DNA of 64,000 bases, from sequence record PZ386948.1. One strand, written 5' to 3'. This DNA is from a phage. A program made the translations under genes and the position numbers. Shown here piece by piece: positions 4,867-43,174 of the stretch; position 1 is the stretch's first letter; each line of letters starts with the position of its first letter. The notes under the pieces are model-generated. The model saw only the letters and a list, made by a program, of their open reading frames with translations, made no database searches and was not told the DNA's origin.

Positions 4867-6549
4867 TTAAACCATTACAGTAAATCGACCAACTTTCTTC
4901 ATTTGAAGATGCTGACCATATTCTTGCGGGTCATGGTCTTTATGTGAAATTATAAAAACATTAGTGTTTTTCATTGAATTTATAATATTAGCTACACCTT
5001 TAATACCTTCGGCATCAAATGACCCATCAAACACTTCATCGAGTATTAATGTACTAATACTAACACCAGATACAATAGAAGCAATATCACGCCAAGTAAA
5101 TAAAAGAGCAATATCAATTCGTGCTTTTTCACCTTCACTAAATGAAGCATAACTAAAATCTTCACGACCACGGGATTTAATTGTCTCATTAAATTCTTCA
5201 TCTAATGTAAACACATAATCCGCTTCCATTATTTTAAGATAATGGTTAATCTGCTTATTAAATAATGGAATGTACTTTTTAATAATAGCACCTTTAATAC
5301 CAGAATCTTTGAGCATATCAGTCAAAATTCCTCGGTGGTATTTTTCCATTACTAAATTAGTTTTTGTCTTAACAATTTTATCAAGTTCTTCTTGAAGCAG
5401 TGCTATTTCATCAGCATGGTCAATAAACTCAGAAGATGCTTTTTCTATAGCCGCTTTAACTTTTTTGGCTTTATCTACCGTCGTGATTAGAGATTGCTTT
5501 TTATTGCGAATATCATTTGCCAACGACTGTTGGGTTTTAATATTATCTCGGTATTCATCAACAAGAACTTTTAAATTATCACGATGTGTTGAAAGCTGTT
5601 CAAACGAATGCGTACATTCAGAAACTTTATCTTTAATTTTAGAAACAACTTTATCACCGGAACTCAATTGTGACAAACAGGTTGGACATAATCCACCTTC
5701 GTGATACATATTAATGACTTTATTATACGAGTCAATTTTTGATTTAATTAAAACTGCTTCTTGACCGATTTTATTAAATGCATCAGTCGGGTCTTCATCC
5801 AAAACAATATTAACTAATCTTTCGTTAGCTTCTTCTATTTCCGATTTTAGCGTTCTAGCTTCTTTTGCCAAATCATCATACATATTTTGCAGACGAGTAA
5901 GGTTGTCACCCGTTAATTTTTTCTGGCGTTCAACGTTATCATTATATATTTTAATTTGTTGGATAATACTATCTTTTTTAACATCAAGCACTTGGTTCTG
6001 CGAATTTAATTCACGTATTAGTGCTTTATTAAGCTTATCCATTTCAGCTAATGTTCCTACCTCAAGCAGGTCTTCCACAAGCTTTCTTCGCGCAGGGGTC
6101 GACAAACCCATGAAAGGGGTATACCCTGCTGTACCAAGGACAACAATCTGCTTGAAACTGGCATATGACATTCCGATAAGCTGTTCAAATTCTGCTTGGA
6201 AATCTTTACTGCTGGCAGATTCATTAAGACGTGTACCGTTAACGGTGATTTCGAAAACGTTTGGTTTTTGTCCTCTTTTGATATAGTACTTTTTCTCATC
6301 ATATTCCATCCACAGTTCAACTAAAAGTTCTTTCTTATTTGTGCTGTTTATTAATTGACCTTTCTTTACATCACGAAATGGTTTGCCAAAAAGCCCAAAT
6401 GTGATGGCTTCTAACATAGTAGACTTACCACCGCCATTTCGGCCAGTAATAAGAGTTTTTTGAACCTTATCTAATTGAATGTCAACTCCATTTTGACCAA
6501 CTGACATTATATTTTTATATTTTACTCTATTAAGTTTAAATGATTTCAT
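4867..6549 (-). CDS. 46: recombination endonuclease subunit gp46 (Rad50/SbcC-like ATPase)
   Basis: 560 aa; Walker A GRNGGGKST near N-terminus, long central coiled coil with CPTC zinc hook, C-terminal LILDEVFDGSFD signature region. Confidence 0.9.
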   Translation of the reverse strand: MKSFKLNRVKYKNIMSVGQNGVDIQLDKVQKTLITGRNGGGKSTMLEAITFGLFGKPFRDVKKGQLINSTNKKELLVELWMEYDEKKYYIKRGQKPNVFEITVNGTRLNESASSKDFQAEFEQLIGMSYASFKQIVVLGTAGYTPFMGLSTPARRKLVEDLLEVGTLAEMDKLNKALIRELNSQNQVLDVKKDSIIQQIKIYNDNVERQKKLTGDNLTRLQNMYDDLAKEARTLKSEIEEANERLVNIVLDEDPTDAFNKIGQEAVLIKSKIDSYNKVINMYHEGGLCPTCLSQLSSGDKVVSKIKDKVSECTHSFEQLSTHRDNLKVLVDEYRDNIKTQQSLANDIRNKKQSLITTVDKAKKVKAAIEKASSEFIDHADEIALLQEELDKIVKTKTNLVMEKYHRGILTDMLKDSGIKGAIIKKYIPLFNKQINHYLKIMEADYVFTLDEEFNETIKSRGREDFSYASFSEGEKARIDIALLFTWRDIASIVSGVSISTLILDEVFDGSFDAEGIKGVANIINSMKNTNVFIISHKDHDPQEYGQHLQMKKVGRFTVMV

Positions 6550-6564
6550 TTTGTATCCAATTGT

Positions 6565-7419
6565 TCACAATGAAGAAAATTCTTTAACTAAAGCCTGTAA
6601 TGAAGCCTCTATTGGATATCCATTCTTAACTAACATTTTCCTAAACATTACATGTTTAGGACGATTATATGATATCCACAATTCATACAATTTATCTTTA
6701 TTATCCCAATGATAGCCTTTTCGTCGAGATGCTATATGAGCTTTTCTAATCTCCGGATTTTTCCAACTAGCAGCTACTGAATTTGATATAGCTATTTTAT
6801 ATTCAGGTTTTGATAAAGCAGCACGAACAGCCTTTTGGTGTTTAATTTTATTTTCTTCGTTATTAAACCATTCCCTTGAAGCCATTGAAATTTTTTGTTT
6901 TGTTTTAAAATTATTTAATCTTTCTTTATTATCTTTCCTATTTTTTGCTACTGAAAAATATTTTAATGCCCTTTCTCTAGCAGCATTTCTATTTTGCGGA
7001 TTTGAATAATACTGTTGAAGCCTTTTTGATATTGTGTCACTTACATCTTGTTTTATAAAACTATATTCAGCAGCTATTAAATCAACTTCGGCTAAAGATA
7101 AATTTTTATATGTTTTTCCTGACATCATTCTATTTAAAGCATTTAGCATTTTTCCATTTTTACCTTTTGCTAATAAGAAGTGTGCTTTAAAATGATTAAA
7201 ATGACTTAAATTAACTAAATTCCATGTAGATTTTAAATATTCAGGAAATATTGATTTAGGAAGCACGTGGTGTGCTTCCGTTTTACCTGGAGTTTTAACA
7301 GTTGAATTCACAGAAATAAAATTAATGTAAGACTTGGCGTCTTCTTCACTCAACGCTAATTTTTCAACTAATTCCTTTATTAAAAATTCATCATTAATGT
7401 CAAGTTTAAAATTCTTCAC
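6565..7419 (-). CDS. HNH homing endonuclease (Mob-like)
   Basis: 284 aa; HNH motif EAHHVLPKS...NLVNLSHFNHFKAHFLL; C-terminal region resembles ORF 27295-28074; inserted between 46 and 47. Confidence 0.65.
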   Translation of the reverse strand: MKNFKLDINDEFLIKELVEKLALSEEDAKSYINFISVNSTVKTPGKTEAHHVLPKSIFPEYLKSTWNLVNLSHFNHFKAHFLLAKGKNGKMLNALNRMMSGKTYKNLSLAEVDLIAAEYSFIKQDVSDTISKRLQQYYSNPQNRNAARERALKYFSVAKNRKDNKERLNNFKTKQKISMASREWFNNEENKIKHQKAVRAALSKPEYKIAISNSVAASWKNPEIRKAHIASRRKGYHWDNKDKLYELWISYNRPKHVMFRKMLVKNGYPIEASLQALVKEFSSL

Positions 7420-13375: not shown

Positions 13376-13505
13376 AAATCATACGTTTATGTAACTTGAG
13401 TATAATATAGCAAACTTCAAAACTATTTACATGAGTAACACGAACAGCATTACCATTAATGAGATAATACTGTCCCTTTTTAATTTCTTTATCAACCACA
13501 ACCAT
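13323..13505 (-). CDS. hypothetical protein
   Basis: 60 aa ORF. Confidence 0.35.
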   Translation of the reverse strand: MVVVDKEIKKGQYYLINGNAVRVTHVNSFEVCYIILKLHKRMICDRAVFSSVAKEIKLHG

Positions 13506-13663
13506 ATCAATTCCTCAAAGGTAATTCATATGTTAATAATACCACGGTTTGAACTTGTTGTAAACAACTTTGTGAAAATTATTTTAGGGAATGATAAGAA
13601 AGGAACGATAGCTTAGAATGGTAATATACAGAATGTGAGAAAGAAAGGCCCAGAGGGCCCGTC

Positions 13664-13972
13664 TTAATCTTCTATGATATCTCTATCATATCCAAGTGAA
13701 ATGAGAGTTTCTTTGAAGTGTTTAATGTTCTTTTGTCTAGAATCATTAATGAAAATGACTGGATAACGAATGTTAAGAGATGTGAATCCAGCGCGTTTAG
13801 CAAGAGATACAATCAGTGGACGATCATACTCAATCTTACCGTTATTTGTAAGAACTTTATAGAAAGTAAAAGGAGCATTGAGCTCCTTTAGAAGTTTTGT
13901 AACTGATTGACATCCAGGACAACGACCTACTTCATCTGGAATTCCATAGACTTCAATCTTATTTTGTTTCAC
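13664..13972 (-). CDS. nrdH: glutaredoxin-like protein NrdH
   Basis: 102 aa; CPGC redox motif; next to nrdG/nrdD. Confidence 0.8.
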   Translation of the reverse strand: MKQNKIEVYGIPDEVGRCPGCQSVTKLLKELNAPFTFYKVLTNNGKIEYDRPLIVSLAKRAGFTSLNIRYPVIFINDSRQKNIKHFKETLISLGYDRDIIED

Positions 13973-13974
13973 AA

Positions 13975-14187
13975 CTATTCCTTACTAAGAGCAGCATTCA
14001 GCTTGTTAGTAATTTTATCCAGACGCTCATTGAACTCACTAGAAGATAAGCCTTTTTCTGGAGAAATTAAGCTAATCACGAAAAATACAACAATAAAAGG
14101 AATAAGGAAAATAGCTCCAACTGCCATAAACAGAAAGAATGTTACAGTTGTAAGAAAATCAGCTAAACCTTTACGAAATTTATACAT
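13975..14187 (-). CDS. small membrane protein
   Basis: 70 aa with long hydrophobic segment FLFMAVGAIFLIPFIVVFFVISLI. Confidence 0.45.
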   Translation of the reverse strand: MYKFRKGLADFLTTVTFFLFMAVGAIFLIPFIVVFFVISLISPEKGLSSSEFNERLDKITNKLNAALSKE

Positions 14188-14302
14188 ATTTTACCCTTAA
14201 TTGATTAACCAAGCATTGATAAGCACTAAACTATACTGCGAATAAAATTCTGGACCAAAATGAAAAATCATATCATTTATAGTATCCATAATGTAATTCA
14301 AT

Positions 14303-14773
14303 TTAATCATGTTTCCACACCCCATCGGTATTTGACCAAAGCCGCTGATTATCTGATCCTCTCCACAGCTTTTTGGTCGGAAGATTTTTCTCATACTTCC
14401 CATCAATAATAACATCAACATATTTAAGCATTTCTAGTTGTTTAATATCTTCAAACTTATATCCTGTCCACAACCAAATGCTTTTATTTGGATAAAGATT
14501 TTTTACTGTTTGAACAATGCAATGAATAACATCTCGATTATCAGGATAGAGAGGGTCTCCTCCAGTTATAGTTAATCCTTCTATATAATCATTATTCAAA
14601 CATTCAATTAATTGTTCTAGTGTTTCACCAGTAAATGGAATACCATTTCTAGCATTCCATGTTGATTTATTATAACACCCTTCGCATTTATGCAAACAAC
14701 CTGTAACGAAAAGAACGGCCCTGCATCCAGGGCCGTTCACAAAATCGCAAGGATAAAATCTATCATAATTCAT
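14303..14773 (-). CDS. nrdG: anaerobic ribonucleotide reductase activating protein NrdG (radical SAM)
   Basis: 156 aa; Cys cluster FVTGCLHKCEGCYN near N-terminus (radical-SAM 4Fe-4S motif); abuts nrdD. Confidence 0.88.
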   Translation of the reverse strand: MNYDRFYPCDFVNGPGCRAVLFVTGCLHKCEGCYNKSTWNARNGIPFTGETLEQLIECLNNDYIEGLTITGGDPLYPDNRDVIHCIVQTVKNLYPNKSIWLWTGYKFEDIKQLEMLKYVDVIIDGKYEKNLPTKKLWRGSDNQRLWSNTDGVWKHD

Positions 14774-16587
14774 TGGTGTTTAACCCTATGCATGATTTCT
14801 TTATTTTTACCGAGATTAAATCCGCGTTCGTTCGGATTTCCCAAATAACCACATGTTCTTCTTATTGTGTTCATCTTTTTAGGATCAGTTTCTCCACAAA
14901 TAGAACAAACAAATCCGTTTTCAGTAGGAGTCATTTCATGGGTACTTCCACATGTAAAACATTTATCTACTGGCATATTAACACCAAAATAATCTAAATG
15001 TTGTGCAGCATAATCCCATACGGCCTCAAGACCCTTTAAGTTATTTTTCATATCAGGAAGTTCAACATAAGAAATGTGACCACCTGTCGCAATGAAATGA
15101 TATGGCGCTTCACGAGAAATCTTTTCAAACGGAGTAATATTTTCTTCTACTGAAACGTGGAAACTGTTAGTGTACCAGCCTTTATCGGTAACATCTTTTA
15201 CACTTCCATATTTTTCTGTATCAAGTTTACAGAAGCGATAACAAAGGTTTTCAGCAGGAGTCGAATATAAACTAAAAGCAAATCCAGTTCTTTCAGTCCA
15301 CTGTTTAAGATGAGCATTCATTTTAGTTAAAATTTCTTGTCCAATATCACGACCGACAAGAATATTCAATTCGTGAATACCAATGTATCCTAGGGACACT
15401 GAACTTCTACCGTTTTTAAATAACTCAATTATGTCGTCATCAGGTTTAAGACGAACCCCGAATGCACCTTCTTGGTAAAGAATAGGAGCAACAGTAGCTT
15501 TAACTCCTTTTAAGGAACTAATTCTACACATCAATGCTTCAAAACATAAATCCATTCGTTCATTGAACAATTCAACAAATTTCTGTTCATTGAATTGTGT
15601 TCCAATATAAGAATCTAACGCGATGCGAGGAAGATTCAATGTTACAACACCAAGATTATTACGTCCATCAAGAATTTCATTGCCAGTCGAATCTTTCCAT
15701 ACGCTCAAGAAACTACGGCATCCCATCGGAGAAACAGGAACAGATGAACCAGTGATAGCTTTATTGTTCTTAGCCGAAATGATGTCAGGATACATTCTTT
15801 TGCTTGCGCACTCTAAAGCAAGCTGCTTAATATCATAGTTCGGGTCGTCTTTATAAAGATTAACACCTTCTTCAACGAACATAACAAGCTTAGGGAAAAT
15901 AGGAGTTATCCCATCACGACCAAGACCTTTAATACGATTTTTCAGAATTGCTTTCTGAATCATTCGTTCAGTCCAGTCAGTTCCCGTACCAAATGTAATT
16001 GTTACAAAAGGCGTTTGTCCGTTTGAACTAAAGAGAGTATTTACTTCATATTCATAAGCTTGGAATGCATCGTATACGTCTTTTTCTGTTTTAGATTGAG
16101 CATAATTTAACGCATCAGCGATTTGCCATTTTTCTGCATCCTCAATATGTTTTGCATAGGTGCGTTTAACATAAGGAGAAAGTACTTTATCTACATTAGC
16201 AAAAGTCGTTCCGCCGTATTGATGGGAAGCAACCTGTGCAGTAATTTGTGCCATAATTGCAGTAGCAACACCGATTGATTTAGGAGTTTCAATCTGTGCA
16301 TTACCAAGCTTAAATCCATTCTCAAGCATTCCTTTTAAATCTACTAAACAACAATTAGTAAATGGAAGAGCAGGGGAATAATCAATATCGTGGAAATGAA
16401 TAATTCCGCTTTCATGCGCTTTCATAATAAAAGACGGGACCATATTTTTGGCAATGTGTTTAGACACAATACCAGCCATAAGGTCCCGTTGAGTTGGAAA
16501 AACACGAGAATCTTTATTAGCATTCTCGTTTAAAAGGTCTTTATTAGTTTTATGAATCAATCCTTCAATTTCTTTTTCAATTGTCAT
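14770..16587 (-). CDS. nrdD: anaerobic ribonucleoside-triphosphate reductase NrdD, uninterrupted
   Basis: 605 aa continuous ORF; C-terminal CxxC...CxxC zinc site and glycyl-radical loop LGNPNERGFNLG; no intron. Confidence 0.9.
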   Translation of the reverse strand: MTIEKEIEGLIHKTNKDLLNENANKDSRVFPTQRDLMAGIVSKHIAKNMVPSFIMKAHESGIIHFHDIDYSPALPFTNCCLVDLKGMLENGFKLGNAQIETPKSIGVATAIMAQITAQVASHQYGGTTFANVDKVLSPYVKRTYAKHIEDAEKWQIADALNYAQSKTEKDVYDAFQAYEYEVNTLFSSNGQTPFVTITFGTGTDWTERMIQKAILKNRIKGLGRDGITPIFPKLVMFVEEGVNLYKDDPNYDIKQLALECASKRMYPDIISAKNNKAITGSSVPVSPMGCRSFLSVWKDSTGNEILDGRNNLGVVTLNLPRIALDSYIGTQFNEQKFVELFNERMDLCFEALMCRISSLKGVKATVAPILYQEGAFGVRLKPDDDIIELFKNGRSSVSLGYIGIHELNILVGRDIGQEILTKMNAHLKQWTERTGFAFSLYSTPAENLCYRFCKLDTEKYGSVKDVTDKGWYTNSFHVSVEENITPFEKISREAPYHFIATGGHISYVELPDMKNNLKGLEAVWDYAAQHLDYFGVNMPVDKCFTCGSTHEMTPTENGFVCSICGETDPKKMNTIRRTCGYLGNPNERGFNLGKNKEIMHRVKHQ

Positions 16588-17057
16588 TTTAAACTCTTTC
16601 TAAGCTGCTTCTTAAATGAAGCTATTAATTGTGTTTTGGTGTCAGATTCATTATATTCAAATCCTCTTTGAAGCATCTCGGCCATCATTTCCTCTTTTCC
16701 TAAACGAGAAAATTCCTTTGTTTTATCTCCAACAAAGTTAGGGTGAATATTATTTTGGGTGTAATCGGATTTTAAATAAGTAAGTAAATTTTCTAACCAT
16801 TCAAGATAATCAACACCTTGTCCCTTTAAGCCAGAACGATTAAATTTGTGCTTCATTTGACCTTCTGCGGCATTACAGAGATTACAAAGCAATCCACGTA
16901 CCTTTCCTGCTTTTGGTCCATTTAATTCATGGTCATGATCAAGATGATTAGCTTGAACATCAGGATTTAGTTCTCGTTGGCAAATTAAGCATTTACCGTT
17001 TTGTGCATCATAAAATTTCTGTTTTTCTTCTTTATATAATTTGCCAGTCAATAACAT
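16584..17057 (-). CDS. 49: endonuclease VII (Holliday junction resolvase)
   Basis: 157 aa MLLTGKLYKEEKQKFYDAQNGKCLICQRELN... matches remembered T4 gp49. Confidence 0.9.
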   Translation of the reverse strand: MLLTGKLYKEEKQKFYDAQNGKCLICQRELNPDVQANHLDHDHELNGPKAGKVRGLLCNLCNAAEGQMKHKFNRSGLKGQGVDYLEWLENLLTYLKSDYTQNNIHPNFVGDKTKEFSRLGKEEMMAEMLQRGFEYNESDTKTQLIASFKKQLRKSLK

Positions 17058-17098
17058 AATAAACCCTTACCTTAAATAGATAAGGGTATTTATTATTT

Positions 17099-17584
17099 TC
17101 AAGTATTGTAAAACATTTGATGCAATCGCTTATATTGCCGAATCTTTTGGTCAGAAAAAGAAATTTGGGTTTCAAGCCATTCAATATATTCTGCCGCAGC
17201 TTGCATCAAATTTCCTTCATAGCCATCGTTATTTTCTTGTGCAGCTAATTTAGCTAATGCGTATGAAATACGTTCACCCTGAAAATCGGCTTTAGGCTTC
17301 TGAACAACTTGATTAGTTCGCTCTACAACTTCTTCAATTTCGCCATTTTCGACTGATTCAGTATTCCACAAACACCAATACGTAATTGGCTTATCGTAGA
17401 TGTTAATAATCTTTCCATCAGAAAGTTCAATTTCAATAATTCCAGTATCAGGTTCTATATCATCTTCACATTCTTTTGCAAGTTCACGAACCTTAAAGAC
17501 AGTACCTGCACTAAGTTCCGGCCAGTAATTACACAGCCCTGTATCAGCACGATTAATTCTAAACCACTTATCTACTGTAATCAT
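17099..17584 (-). CDS. pin: PinA-like protein (Lon protease inhibitor), tentative
   Basis: 161 aa from internal Met; position after gene 49 as T4 pin; identity by synteny and length only. Confidence 0.45.
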   Translation of the reverse strand: MITVDKWFRINRADTGLCNYWPELSAGTVFKVRELAKECEDDIEPDTGIIEIELSDGKIINIYDKPITYWCLWNTESVENGEIEEVVERTNQVVQKPKADFQGERISYALAKLAAQENNDGYEGNLMQAAAEYIEWLETQISFSDQKIRQYKRLHQMFYNT

Positions 17585-26300: not shown

Positions 26301-27347
26301 TCATTTATAATAACTTCGGTGGTTTTCAAGATAAACCCTCTCAAGGAAGTCATCCCAAAAACCCATGTCTACTTTTTGCTGCATACCGTTCTTAGAAGCT
26401 TCAGTAGATGCTGCTTCTACTTGATCGACCACATCTTCCAAAAACTCTTGAACCGTTTTAAATGGATGTTTACCCAACTTCACGTCGAGAATAAATGGAG
26501 CATCTTGGAGTGGATAAACCAAGTCACCAGTTTTGTAAATTTCCAATAGTTGGAGTCCACCACGGCAAGCATGACTCATAGCTTTCCAGTCAATACCTTC
26601 ATTGGCTTCGGCCTTACGAGCACGTTCACCGTATTCAGCATCTAATTTGTTCAGTGACTGCTTAAGCTCAATAAGAGAAAGCGTTGTCTGATATTTACGA
26701 CCCAACACTGTGTAAAACGTCTGTGGGCCTGTTTTCTCATGATTATGGAACACCCATTCACAGAATTCGTTTTCTGGAAGACGATGCTTAATATCTTCAA
26801 CTTTAGTACGACGCTGCTTAATGGAACCGTCTTCTTGGTAATCAACCCATTGCTCAGGGATTTGATTAACTACTTTCAATACATCGCGTAATGCAGCCAA
26901 ACGAGAACCCTTAACGCCGTATTTAGAAGCTTGCTTACGGACATATCCTAAATAGGATTTCATGTTAGTCGTATAAAAACGAGAACGGTTGTCTTGAATA
27001 AACTTCCACACATCAGGCAAATCAGATTTAACCACTAACTCAGGTGGAGTGTGAAGCATATCTAACGCTACAGTTTCACCATCTGCTGCTAATTTAAAGA
27101 AATATTTAAGACTATACAATTCGTGGTCAATATCATCTTTAGTGTTTTTAGATGATGTGTTGTTAGTGTTTTTACTCATATGCTCTTTAACATTTCCGAT
27201 AAGAATATCGCGAGCAGGAGGAACAAAAATTTCTTTAAAATCTACATCAGATTCTGGAGTAGAAGTTCCATAAAGATGACTACCAAAATAAGACTTAACT
27301 ACAGTTTTCATTATTAGACCTTTCATAATCTTCATTAAATTGTACAA
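26301..27347 (-). CDS. nucleotidyltransferase-fold protein (predicted)
   Basis: GS...D.D signature FGSHLYGTSTPESDVDF near N-terminus; start codon ambiguous (27347, 27332 or 27311). Confidence 0.55.
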   Translation of the reverse strand: MYNLMKIMKGLIMKTVVKSYFGSHLYGTSTPESDVDFKEIFVPPARDILIGNVKEHMSKNTNNTSSKNTKDDIDHELYSLKYFFKLAADGETVALDMLHTPPELVVKSDLPDVWKFIQDNRSRFYTTNMKSYLGYVRKQASKYGVKGSRLAALRDVLKVVNQIPEQWVDYQEDGSIKQRRTKVEDIKHRLPENEFCEWVFHNHEKTGPQTFYTVLGRKYQTTLSLIELKQSLNKLDAEYGERARKAEANEGIDWKAMSHACRGGLQLLEIYKTGDLVYPLQDAPFILDVKLGKHPFKTVQEFLEDVVDQVEAASTEASKNGMQQKVDMGFWDDFLERVYLENHRSYYK

Positions 27348-28074
27348 TCAATCGATGATAATTAGATTTTGGATATCCTAATTTACTTATATAAGTTCCG
27401 AATGACCCACGTTTAGGTCTATTTAATTTAATCCATAACTTATAAAGTAAGTCATAGTCTTGCCAATGTTTACCAGTTCTTTGTCTAATTTTAGATGAAT
27501 TTGATTGTTTCTTTTTAGTTTCAAAATTATTCAAAGATTTTTTGACTGCAGCAGAGTGTTTTTCTTTAACTCCCGGTCGTTTAAAAGCAGCTTTCACCCC
27601 TTTAGATATTTTTTCTTTAACTTCCGGTTTGTTTTGTGCTTCTAACTGGGATTCTGAAATTTTAGCCCTTATTTCAGGAAGACTTAATGTTATCGAACGT
27701 TTTTCTCTGTATTCATTAGACTTCCACATTTCTTTCATTGTATTAGAATGTATTTTTGAAAATTTTTCTCTAACTAACTGATATCCTCTTGAAGTTAATT
27801 TGAGATTTCTTCCTAAAGAATCTTCTCCAAAATTATAAAATGACCACCATGCATAAATTAATCCAGGCGAATTATAATGAATTTTAGCTAAAAGCCAATG
27901 GGCTATAAAATGCTCTCTAGCTGTTAATAAAACTAGATTATCAGAATCATCATTACCACCAATACAAGATGGAATAATATGATGCTTTTCCGTATAAAAA
28001 TTTAATTTAGATTTATCTAATTTTCTGAGTTTTCCTTTCTTAATTAAATTATTATATACTTTAGTATAATTCAT
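27295..28074 (-). CDS. HNH homing endonuclease (MobD-like)
   Basis: 259 aa; HNH motif EKHHIIPSCIGG...NLVLLTAREHFIAHWLL; C-terminus resembles ORF 6565-7419. Confidence 0.7.
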   Translation of the reverse strand: MNYTKVYNNLIKKGKLRKLDKSKLNFYTEKHHIIPSCIGGNDDSDNLVLLTAREHFIAHWLLAKIHYNSPGLIYAWWSFYNFGEDSLGRNLKLTSRGYQLVREKFSKIHSNTMKEMWKSNEYREKRSITLSLPEIRAKISESQLEAQNKPEVKEKISKGVKAAFKRPGVKEKHSAAVKKSLNNFETKKKQSNSSKIRQRTGKHWQDYDLLYKLWIKLNRPKRGSFGTYISKLGYPKSNYHRLIVQFNEDYERSNNENCS

Positions 28075-41920: not shown

Positions 41921-41996
41921 TGGTCGAGGCAGTAGGGATCGAACCTACGACCTAGGACTTAGAAGGTCCTTGCTCTTCCTTCTGAGCTATGCCCCG
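41921..41996 (-). tRNA. tRNA-Arg (anticodon UCU)
   Basis: Minus-strand cloverleaf read by eye: anticodon arm AGGAC-CUUCUAA-GUCCU, T-arm GUAGG-UUCGAUC-CCUAC, encoded CCA. Confidence 0.8.
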
Positions 41997-42000
41997 TAAT

Positions 42001-42087
42001 TGGGGTGACCGATGGGAGTCGAACCACCCGAGTCGCAATGACAATGGATTTACAGTCCACACCGCTACCTCTACGGGATAACTCCCC
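42001..42087 (-). other. tRNA-like element, non-canonical (possible degenerate tRNA or small stable RNA)
   Basis: Has GGUUCGA T-loop-like motif, anticodon-like arm with GUA in loop and 3' CCA, but acceptor and T stems do not pair canonically by eye. Confidence 0.3.
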
Positions 42088-42100
42088 TTAATTCTTAATT

Positions 42101-42175
42101 TGGTGGCCCTGGGTGGAATTGAACCACCATCTGGCGATTATGAGTCGCTTGCTTGAACCTTCCAGCTACAGGGCC
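42101..42175 (-). tRNA. tRNA with CAU anticodon (Ile2-type or Met)
   Basis: Acceptor GGCCCUG/CAGGGCC, anticodon loop CUCAUAA, T-loop UUCAAUU, CCA encoded. Confidence 0.8.
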
Positions 42176-42176
42176 T

Positions 42177-42252
42177 TGGTGCTGATTGACGGAATCGAAC
42201 CGCCGACCTTCTCATTACAAGTGAGTTGCTCTACCTACTGAGCTAAATCAGC
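42177..42252 (-). tRNA. tRNA-Thr (anticodon UGU)
   Basis: Acceptor GCUGAUU/AAUCAGC, anticodon loop CUUGUAA, T-arm GGCGGUUCGAUUCCGUC. Confidence 0.8.
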
Positions 42253-42257
42253 AAAAC

Positions 42258-42347
42258 TGGCGGAGGCGATAGGATTTGAACCTATGAGTCGCCGGAGCGA
42301 CTGCCGGTTTTCAAGACCGGTGCATTAAACCACTCTGCCACGCCTCC
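42258..42347 (-). tRNA. tRNA-Ser (anticodon UGA)
   Basis: 90 nt type-II tRNA; reverse complement matches remembered T4 tRNA-Ser (GGAGGCGUGGCAGAGUGG...). Confidence 0.9.
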
Positions 42348-42353
42348 AAATAT

Positions 42354-43004
42354 TTATATATTGTTAATTTGATTTAGAATTCTTTTTGCTTGAGTATGAC
42401 TTACGCCAATATGCTTAGCATATTTAGACAATTCGCCACGTTTAGAAAAATCATATAATTTAGAAATTTCTATTCTTCTTTTTCTTTCATCCGCAGAAAC
42501 TTTTGCTTCGTTTGCTTTTGCTATTTTACGTTTAGCTTCTTGAGAATGAGTTTTACCAGCAAAGCCATTCTTCATTAATCCATTTGAAGACCATCCTTTT
42601 AATTTTCCGTTAGAATGTGCCTTTTTAACACCCAATGAAATTAATTCGCGTTGCTGATCTGTCATAGGATAATTATTTATATGATCCCATCCACCTTCAC
42701 CTCCAAGTTTTAAATTATACACATCTGGTCTATTTAAAAACTCTTCTGTGACAATATTTTTCTCGGCTTCAAGCATAGATTCTTTATCGTCAAAATACTC
42801 TAATATTTCTTTAGAAAAATTTTCTATACCATATTTATCTTGGGCTCTTTTTAATAATTTACCAGAACCCATATATCCATCATCTAAATTTTCGGTAGAA
42901 TGCACACCAATATAAATTTTATTATTAATTTTATTTGTTATTTTATAAAGATAAAAATGCATATCAGTCCCTAATAAAGAACTGAGCGTCTCACGACGAG
43001 TCAT
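42354..43004 (-). CDS. GIY-YIG homing endonuclease (SegB-like)
   Basis: 216 aa; GIY-YIG core YLYKITNKINNKIYIGV; C-terminal HTH-like tail; embedded between tRNA-Ser and tRNA-Gly. Confidence 0.75.
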   Translation of the reverse strand: MTRRETLSSLLGTDMHFYLYKITNKINNKIYIGVHSTENLDDGYMGSGKLLKRAQDKYGIENFSKEILEYFDDKESMLEAEKNIVTEEFLNRPDVYNLKLGGEGGWDHINNYPMTDQQRELISLGVKKAHSNGKLKGWSSNGLMKNGFAGKTHSQEAKRKIAKANEAKVSADERKRRIEISKLYDFSKRGELSKYAKHIGVSHTQAKRILNQINNI

Positions 43005-43008
43005 AAAT

Positions 43009-43082
<74 letters not shown>

Positions 43083-43087
43083 AAATT

Positions 43088-43174
43088 TGGTGCGAGAAGT
43101 GGGACTCGAACCCACAAGGAAATCATTCCGCAGCATTTTAAGTGCTGTGCCTTTACCAATTTGACCATTCTCGC
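43088..43174 (-). tRNA. tRNA-Leu (anticodon UAA)
   Basis: 87 nt type-II tRNA; reverse complement matches remembered T4 tRNA-Leu (GCGAGAAUGGUCAAAUUGG...). Confidence 0.9.

Follow-up and report, generated by a model that had tools for sequence, protein, structure and literature searches.

With a probability that we put at about 95%, the nrdD-nrdG region of this phage is an ordinary, functional, intron-free operon of a Tequatrovirus (phage CM8), in which the position that holds a mobile intron in T4 is an unoccupied homing site. An uninterrupted nrdD is the default among the relatives of T4; this phage shows the norm, and T4 is the exception. The window, that is, the whole 64,000-nucleotide stretch of record PZ386948.1 that was analyzed, contains the following features of the locus.

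14303..14773, minus strand: nrdG, the predicted radical-SAM activase of NrdD.
14770..14773, minus strand: ATGA overlap of the nrdD stop and the nrdG start, an unoccupied endonuclease-gene site.
14770..16587, minus strand: nrdD, a single 605-codon open reading frame with an ATG start, predicted to encode the large subunit of an anaerobic (class III) ribonucleoside-triphosphate reductase.
16030..16051, minus strand: intron-less allele of the I-TevII homing-site region, with seven synonymous positions.
16049..16050, minus strand: empty group I intron insertion site, placed by base-level alignment with the T4 exons.
16584..16587, minus strand: ATGA overlap of the gene 49 stop and the nrdD start, an unoccupied endonuclease-gene site.
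16584..17057, minus strand: gene 49, predicted endonuclease VII, the upstream neighbor of nrdD as in the gene order of T4.

At the GC content of the window (34.6%), 605 codons would stay open by chance with a probability of about 2e-20, and the product has the sequence features of a working enzyme. Residues 21-604 of 605 match the Pfam family NRDD (PF13597; E value of 1.7e-171), the Gly_radical family is matched as well (E value of 1.2e-25), and the chain of the T4 NrdD crystal structure (1h78_A) covers residues 1-605 with 1405 bits. The C terminus carries the glycyl-radical motif RRTCGYLG (RxCGY type) with G580 in T4 numbering, the active-site cysteines C290 and C79 are both kept, as is N311, and so are all four zinc-site cysteines (C543, C546, C561, and C564); the roles of C79, C290, and G580 we take to be those assigned from the T4 NrdD structures. 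Judged by every sequence criterion examined, the product belongs to the class III ribonucleotide reductases, and from its 99.7% amino acid identity with the characterized T4 enzyme we infer that it reduces NTPs to dNTPs under anaerobic conditions. Its partner NrdG matches the Pfam families Fer4_12 (E value of 4e-48) and Radical_SAM and carries a CxxxCxxC motif (CLHKCEGC). The glycyl-radical enzyme and its activase would be made from adjoining reading frames that share 4 nt, an arrangement that would therefore need no RNA splicing.

Over window positions 14200-17100 (2.9 kb), the DNA is 100% identical to that of Shigella phage CM8 (MK962750/NC_054939), a Tequatrovirus that came from chicken meat, and on this evidence the window would be the CM8 genome. 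The CM8 record already annotates the same genes as NrdD, NrdG, and endonuclease VII, with no difference from the window. The feature is thus already known, the genome being deposited and annotated and its arrangement being the same as that of T2, and there is nothing new in it.

In T4 (NC_000866), the annotation of nrdD joins two pieces on either side of the I-TevII gene, and Rfam identifies the insert as a group I intron (105 bits), which served as the positive control for our scan of the window. The first-pass annotation had described the T4 gene as split by such an intron and the gene studied here as one continuous 605-codon frame at 14770-16587, and both descriptions are borne out. The T4 gene consists of an exon 1 of 538 nt, an intron of 1,033 nt, and an exon 2 of 1,280 nt; the exon 1 ends with ...GCTTATGAGT, and the intron starts with TAACGTAAG... 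and ends with ...ACACATTG. The best ungapped fit of the T4 gene to the window frame is obtained when 1,033 nt are taken out after base 538, at which point both sequences are 1,818 nt long. The spliced T4 gene then differs from the window frame by 56 mismatches in 1,818 nt (96.9% DNA identity), and the proteins differ by two amino acids (V65F and R417Q). This alignment with the T4 exons, which was the check that the first-pass annotation had proposed, places the T4 intron position between 16050 (the last base equivalent to exon 1) and 16049 (the first base equivalent to exon 2), within codon 180 (TAT, Tyr), following its first base; at that position the window frame shows neither a gap nor added sequence, and the 1,818 nt align ungapped.

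Searches for traces of the intron were likewise negative. No group I intron (Rfam RF00028) was detected in the whole 64-kb window at the gathering threshold, and neither an intron nor a remnant of one was detected at an E value of ≤10 in positions 13500-17500. (The local Rfam scan returned subthreshold chance matches only, such as an L20_leader at 28.6 bits against a cutoff of 58.7 bits.) By tblastn, no sequence related to I-TevII occurs anywhere in the window, and MobC and three endonucleases of relatives have no full-length match from gene 49 to nrdG (14300-17060). The sole tblastn match in that interval is to the 13-amino-acid N terminus of NrdG, which is duplicated by an 840-nt HNH gene of relatives.

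An empty site of this kind is what most related phages have. About 890 records match the window locus, of which 808 contain the greater part of it at a single location, and the T4 nrdD intron is present at full length in 25, at least 11 of these being T4 itself; mobC is found in 32. The junction is uninterrupted in 598 records, and the exact 81-nt junction of the window recurs in 145 of the database records, T2 included. The share of sequenced relatives that carry the intron is about 3%. That the T4 introns vary in their distribution was what first suggested their mobility. T4 introns are described as variably distributed among T-even phages (PMC2988022), and across T4-related genomes introns are much scarcer than free-standing endonuclease genes (Petrov et al., PMC2993671). 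The facts in the first-pass annotation therefore stand, but the significance that it implied does not: intron-free nrdD is the majority state, and the surprise arose because T4 had been treated as typical.

Around the insertion site, the T4 and window sequences differ in a way that follows the intron. Relative to the site, the differences lie at -2 (16051), +8 (16042), +11 (16039), +14 (16036), +15 (16035), +17 (16033), and +20 (16030), and all are synonymous. These 7 differences fall within 30 nt, compared with 56 in 1,818 nt overall, a clustering with a permutation P of 0.001 to 0.006. We surveyed this haplotype in 11 phages (the window and ten others), supplemented by identity bands from the database. 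All of the intron-bearing phages (T4, PST, G8, fPS-2, EC128, and U5) are of the T4 type at the seven positions, and all of the intron-less ones (T2, RB18, AndreasVesalius, and UPWr_E4) are of the window type, so that the haplotype splits perfectly by the presence of the intron and the T4 allele occurs with the intron only. From -40 to +60 around the site, T2 and the window are identical. In the phage collection, no record has the haplotype of the spliced T4 junction without an intron, the best contiguous match being 93.8%. That match is in Salmonella phage SG1 (MF001354; positions 156309-156389), whose uninterrupted junction comes nearest to the T4 haplotype among intron-less phages; this intermediate allele could be relevant to how the intron-linked haplotype evolved.

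Homing is described as a double-strand break followed by resection and donor-templated repair, with coconversion of the flanking exon (PMC2988022). If an intron-bearing phage infected the same cell, I-TevII would be expected to cut a few bases downstream of 16050/16049, the unoccupied homing site for the mobile T4 intron with its I-TevII gene, and repair of the double-strand break would then bring in the intron together with the exon haplotype linked to it. Because the enzyme would cut downstream and repair would use the donor, the interval between the insertion site and the cut would be copied from the donor, and coconversion is the best explanation for the linkage of the seven sites with the intron. 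I-TevII reportedly cuts 13 to 15 nt downstream of the insertion site, as Bell-Pedersen et al. are said to have found in 1990, and the T4 nrdD (sunY) intron reportedly homes into T2, as Quirk et al. are said to have found in 1989. On the basis of this cut position, of homing into T2, and of the identity of the window site to that of T2, the window allele is predicted to be a potential target of I-TevII.

The same differences might be read in the opposite sense, with the clustered synonymous changes conferring resistance to I-TevII, so that the site would be an immune variant and not a naive target. Six of the seven differences, at +8 to +20, fall within or close to the presumed cleavage region, around the cut position given above, and their clustering is nonrandom; reduced cleavage of the window allele by I-TevII is therefore possible. 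As a full account of the site, however, we consider resistance unlikely. The intron-less allele is widespread, being identical in the 145 records that include T2, and T2 has reportedly been used as a recipient for the nrdD intron. Phage GIY-YIG endonucleases like I-TevII are described as able to tolerate changes in sequence. Moreover, the occurrence of the T4-type allele with the intron only is the pattern predicted by obligatory coconversion of the interval from the insertion site to the cut (for the mechanism, see PMC2988022).

Position -2 may also be held by splicing. In T4, the G at -2 pairs with a C of the intron guide sequence (exon UAUGAGU, intron GCUCAUG) in a predicted P1 helix; in local folds, this helix forms with the T4 allele (-7.1 kcal/mol), and an A at -2, as in the window, changes the minimum-energy structure. 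We assessed P1 by base complementarity and local folding, and the Rfam alignment of P1 in T4 looked unreliable. A combined reading, to which we give little credence, is that the two alleles are functionally distinct, the intron-linked one being needed for splicing (through the G at -2 in P1) and the widespread intron-less one being partly resistant to I-TevII. If this were true, the difference between the alleles would limit the spread of the intron and would help to explain its occupancy of about 3%.

The site might instead have held the intron formerly and have lost it precisely, for example through recombination with a copy that had been spliced or reverse transcribed, or through an exact deletion. 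At the protein level such a history would look the same, and the seamless frame and the 99.7% identity to T4 NrdD agree with it; the flanking exon, however, speaks against it. After a precise excision, one would expect the intron-linked haplotype to remain, but the window has the intron-less one at all seven positions, as does T2, the T4 haplotype without the intron occurs in no record of the phage collection, and the intron-free gene is the majority state. Precise excision at this site thus appears unlikely from the alignments, and as an explanation of the window we hold it to be very improbable. That the continuous frame is an artifact of assembly or annotation, with the intron collapsed in the assembly, is a notion for which we found no support and which can practically be dismissed, given that hundreds of independently sequenced phages are uninterrupted here (with the 81-nt junction contiguous in those 598 records), as are several independent T2 assemblies.

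The reading of an unoccupied homing site is the one that we retain. Since the flanking exon has the same intron-less haplotype as T2, the site was most likely never invaded, or else its last repair used an intron-less template; a site that was never invaded and one that lost its intron by recombination with an intron-less phage look the same and cannot be told apart. The locus clearly illustrates an unoccupied homing site, at which the haplotype of the flanking exon separates "not invaded" from "intron lost."

The boundary between nrdD and nrdG is a second position at which relatives carry an endonuclease gene. Here, the first-pass annotation was correct that nrdG abuts nrdD with no intervening open reading frame: the genes overlap by the 4 nt ATGA at 14770-14773, and mobC is absent. 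In T4 this junction holds mobC, a free-standing HNH gene; PST and AndreasVesalius have a mobC-like HNH gene of 840 nt at the same place, and EC128 and fPS-2 have a GIY-YIG gene. The product of the 840-nt frame is 38% identical to T4 MobC over 60 amino acids, and its matches to Pfam NUMOD motifs are all below threshold. In T4, the start of MobC (positions 5519-5539 of the T4 locus, L001) duplicates the N terminus of NrdG (MNYDRIY), and in PST and AndreasVesalius the start of the 840-nt HNH gene (L005 1365-1403 and L007 4810-4848) duplicates it as well, as MNYDRFYPCDFVN. Endonuclease genes between nrdD and nrdG appear to take over the overlapping ATGA start of nrdG.

A variant nrdG start, ATGAATTATGACAGAATATACCC(G/A)TGCTGC, with 9 to 11 differences in the first 50 nt of the gene, was noted in L005, L007, L009, L010, and L011. 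It is carried by phages that have an endonuclease gene at this junction and also by U5, whose partial record shows no endonuclease gene there. The variant could be an endonuclease-resistant target. The nrdG start of the window is the unmodified sequence of the T2 type.

The nrdG gene itself also sets T4 apart. Its first 300 nt (14474-14773) are about 65% identical to the corresponding segment of T4 (L001 4617-4917), with 103 mismatches and 31 amino acid changes; over the last 171 nt the identity is about 99%. Among the eleven phages, the divergent 5' segment is found in T4 only; across the database, a T4-type nrdG segment turns up in most of the listed phages that carry mobC and is 93 to 97% identical to the nrdG of Klebsiella T4-like phages. 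By these comparisons the window nrdG is the common Tequatrovirus allele and that of T4 a derived, mosaic state, which suggests that mobC entered T4 along with a stretch of foreign nrdG.

On the other side of nrdD, the product of gene 49 matches the Pfam families Endonuclease_7 and Endonuc-dimeris, and an 822-nt endonuclease-like open reading frame with a NUMOD3 motif lies between gene 49 and nrdD in G8 and fPS-2. In relatives, the region from gene 49 through nrdD to nrdG is a hot spot for homing endonuclease genes, and all three of its positions (the gene 49/nrdD boundary, the nrdD intron site, and the nrdD/nrdG boundary) are empty in the window. A further variation in this region is seen in Escherichia phage UPWr_E4 (L006 2385-3553), which has two tandem copies of gene 49, separated by a small open reading frame, just upstream of nrdD.

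Elsewhere in the window, two free-standing HNH endonuclease-like open reading frames of 284 and 259 amino acids (6565-7419 and 27295-28074, both on the minus strand) have 25 to 40% identity to MobC and to the product of the 840-nt HNH gene; homing endonucleases are therefore not absent from this phage, and only the nrdD locus is empty. A GIY-YIG endonuclease-like frame of 216 amino acids (42354-43004, minus strand) occupies a segB-like position between tRNA-Ser and tRNA-Gly, within a cluster (41921-43174) of six tRNAs (Arg, Met, Thr, Ser, Gly, and Leu); T4 has eight tRNAs. Near 50 kb of the window the GC skew changes sign, from negative before to positive after, which may mark a switch of the main coding strand.

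The value of an intron-free nrdD as a discovery is small, and its use lies in annotation: the T4 reference is atypical at the nrdD locus (in its intron, I-TevII, mobC, and the divergent 5' segment of nrdG), and annotators should not treat a relative that lacks these four as unusual.

Compared with known systems, the locus resembles that of T4 in the gene itself (nrdD, or sunY, encoding 605 amino acids) and in its neighbors (gene 49 upstream and nrdG downstream). It differs in that T4 has, after base 538, the 1,033-nt intron that encodes the GIY-YIG endonuclease I-TevII, and mobC between nrdD and nrdG, both of which the window lacks, and in that T4 has the intron-linked seven-site exon haplotype and the divergent 5' segment of nrdG. 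The closer counterpart is T2, the classical intron-less T-even phage, which has the same uninterrupted 1,818-nt nrdD and the same 4-nt overlap with nrdG; outside the interval from -40 to +60, the two nrdD genes diverge by about 2.2% in nucleotide sequence, and in structure we found no difference between them.
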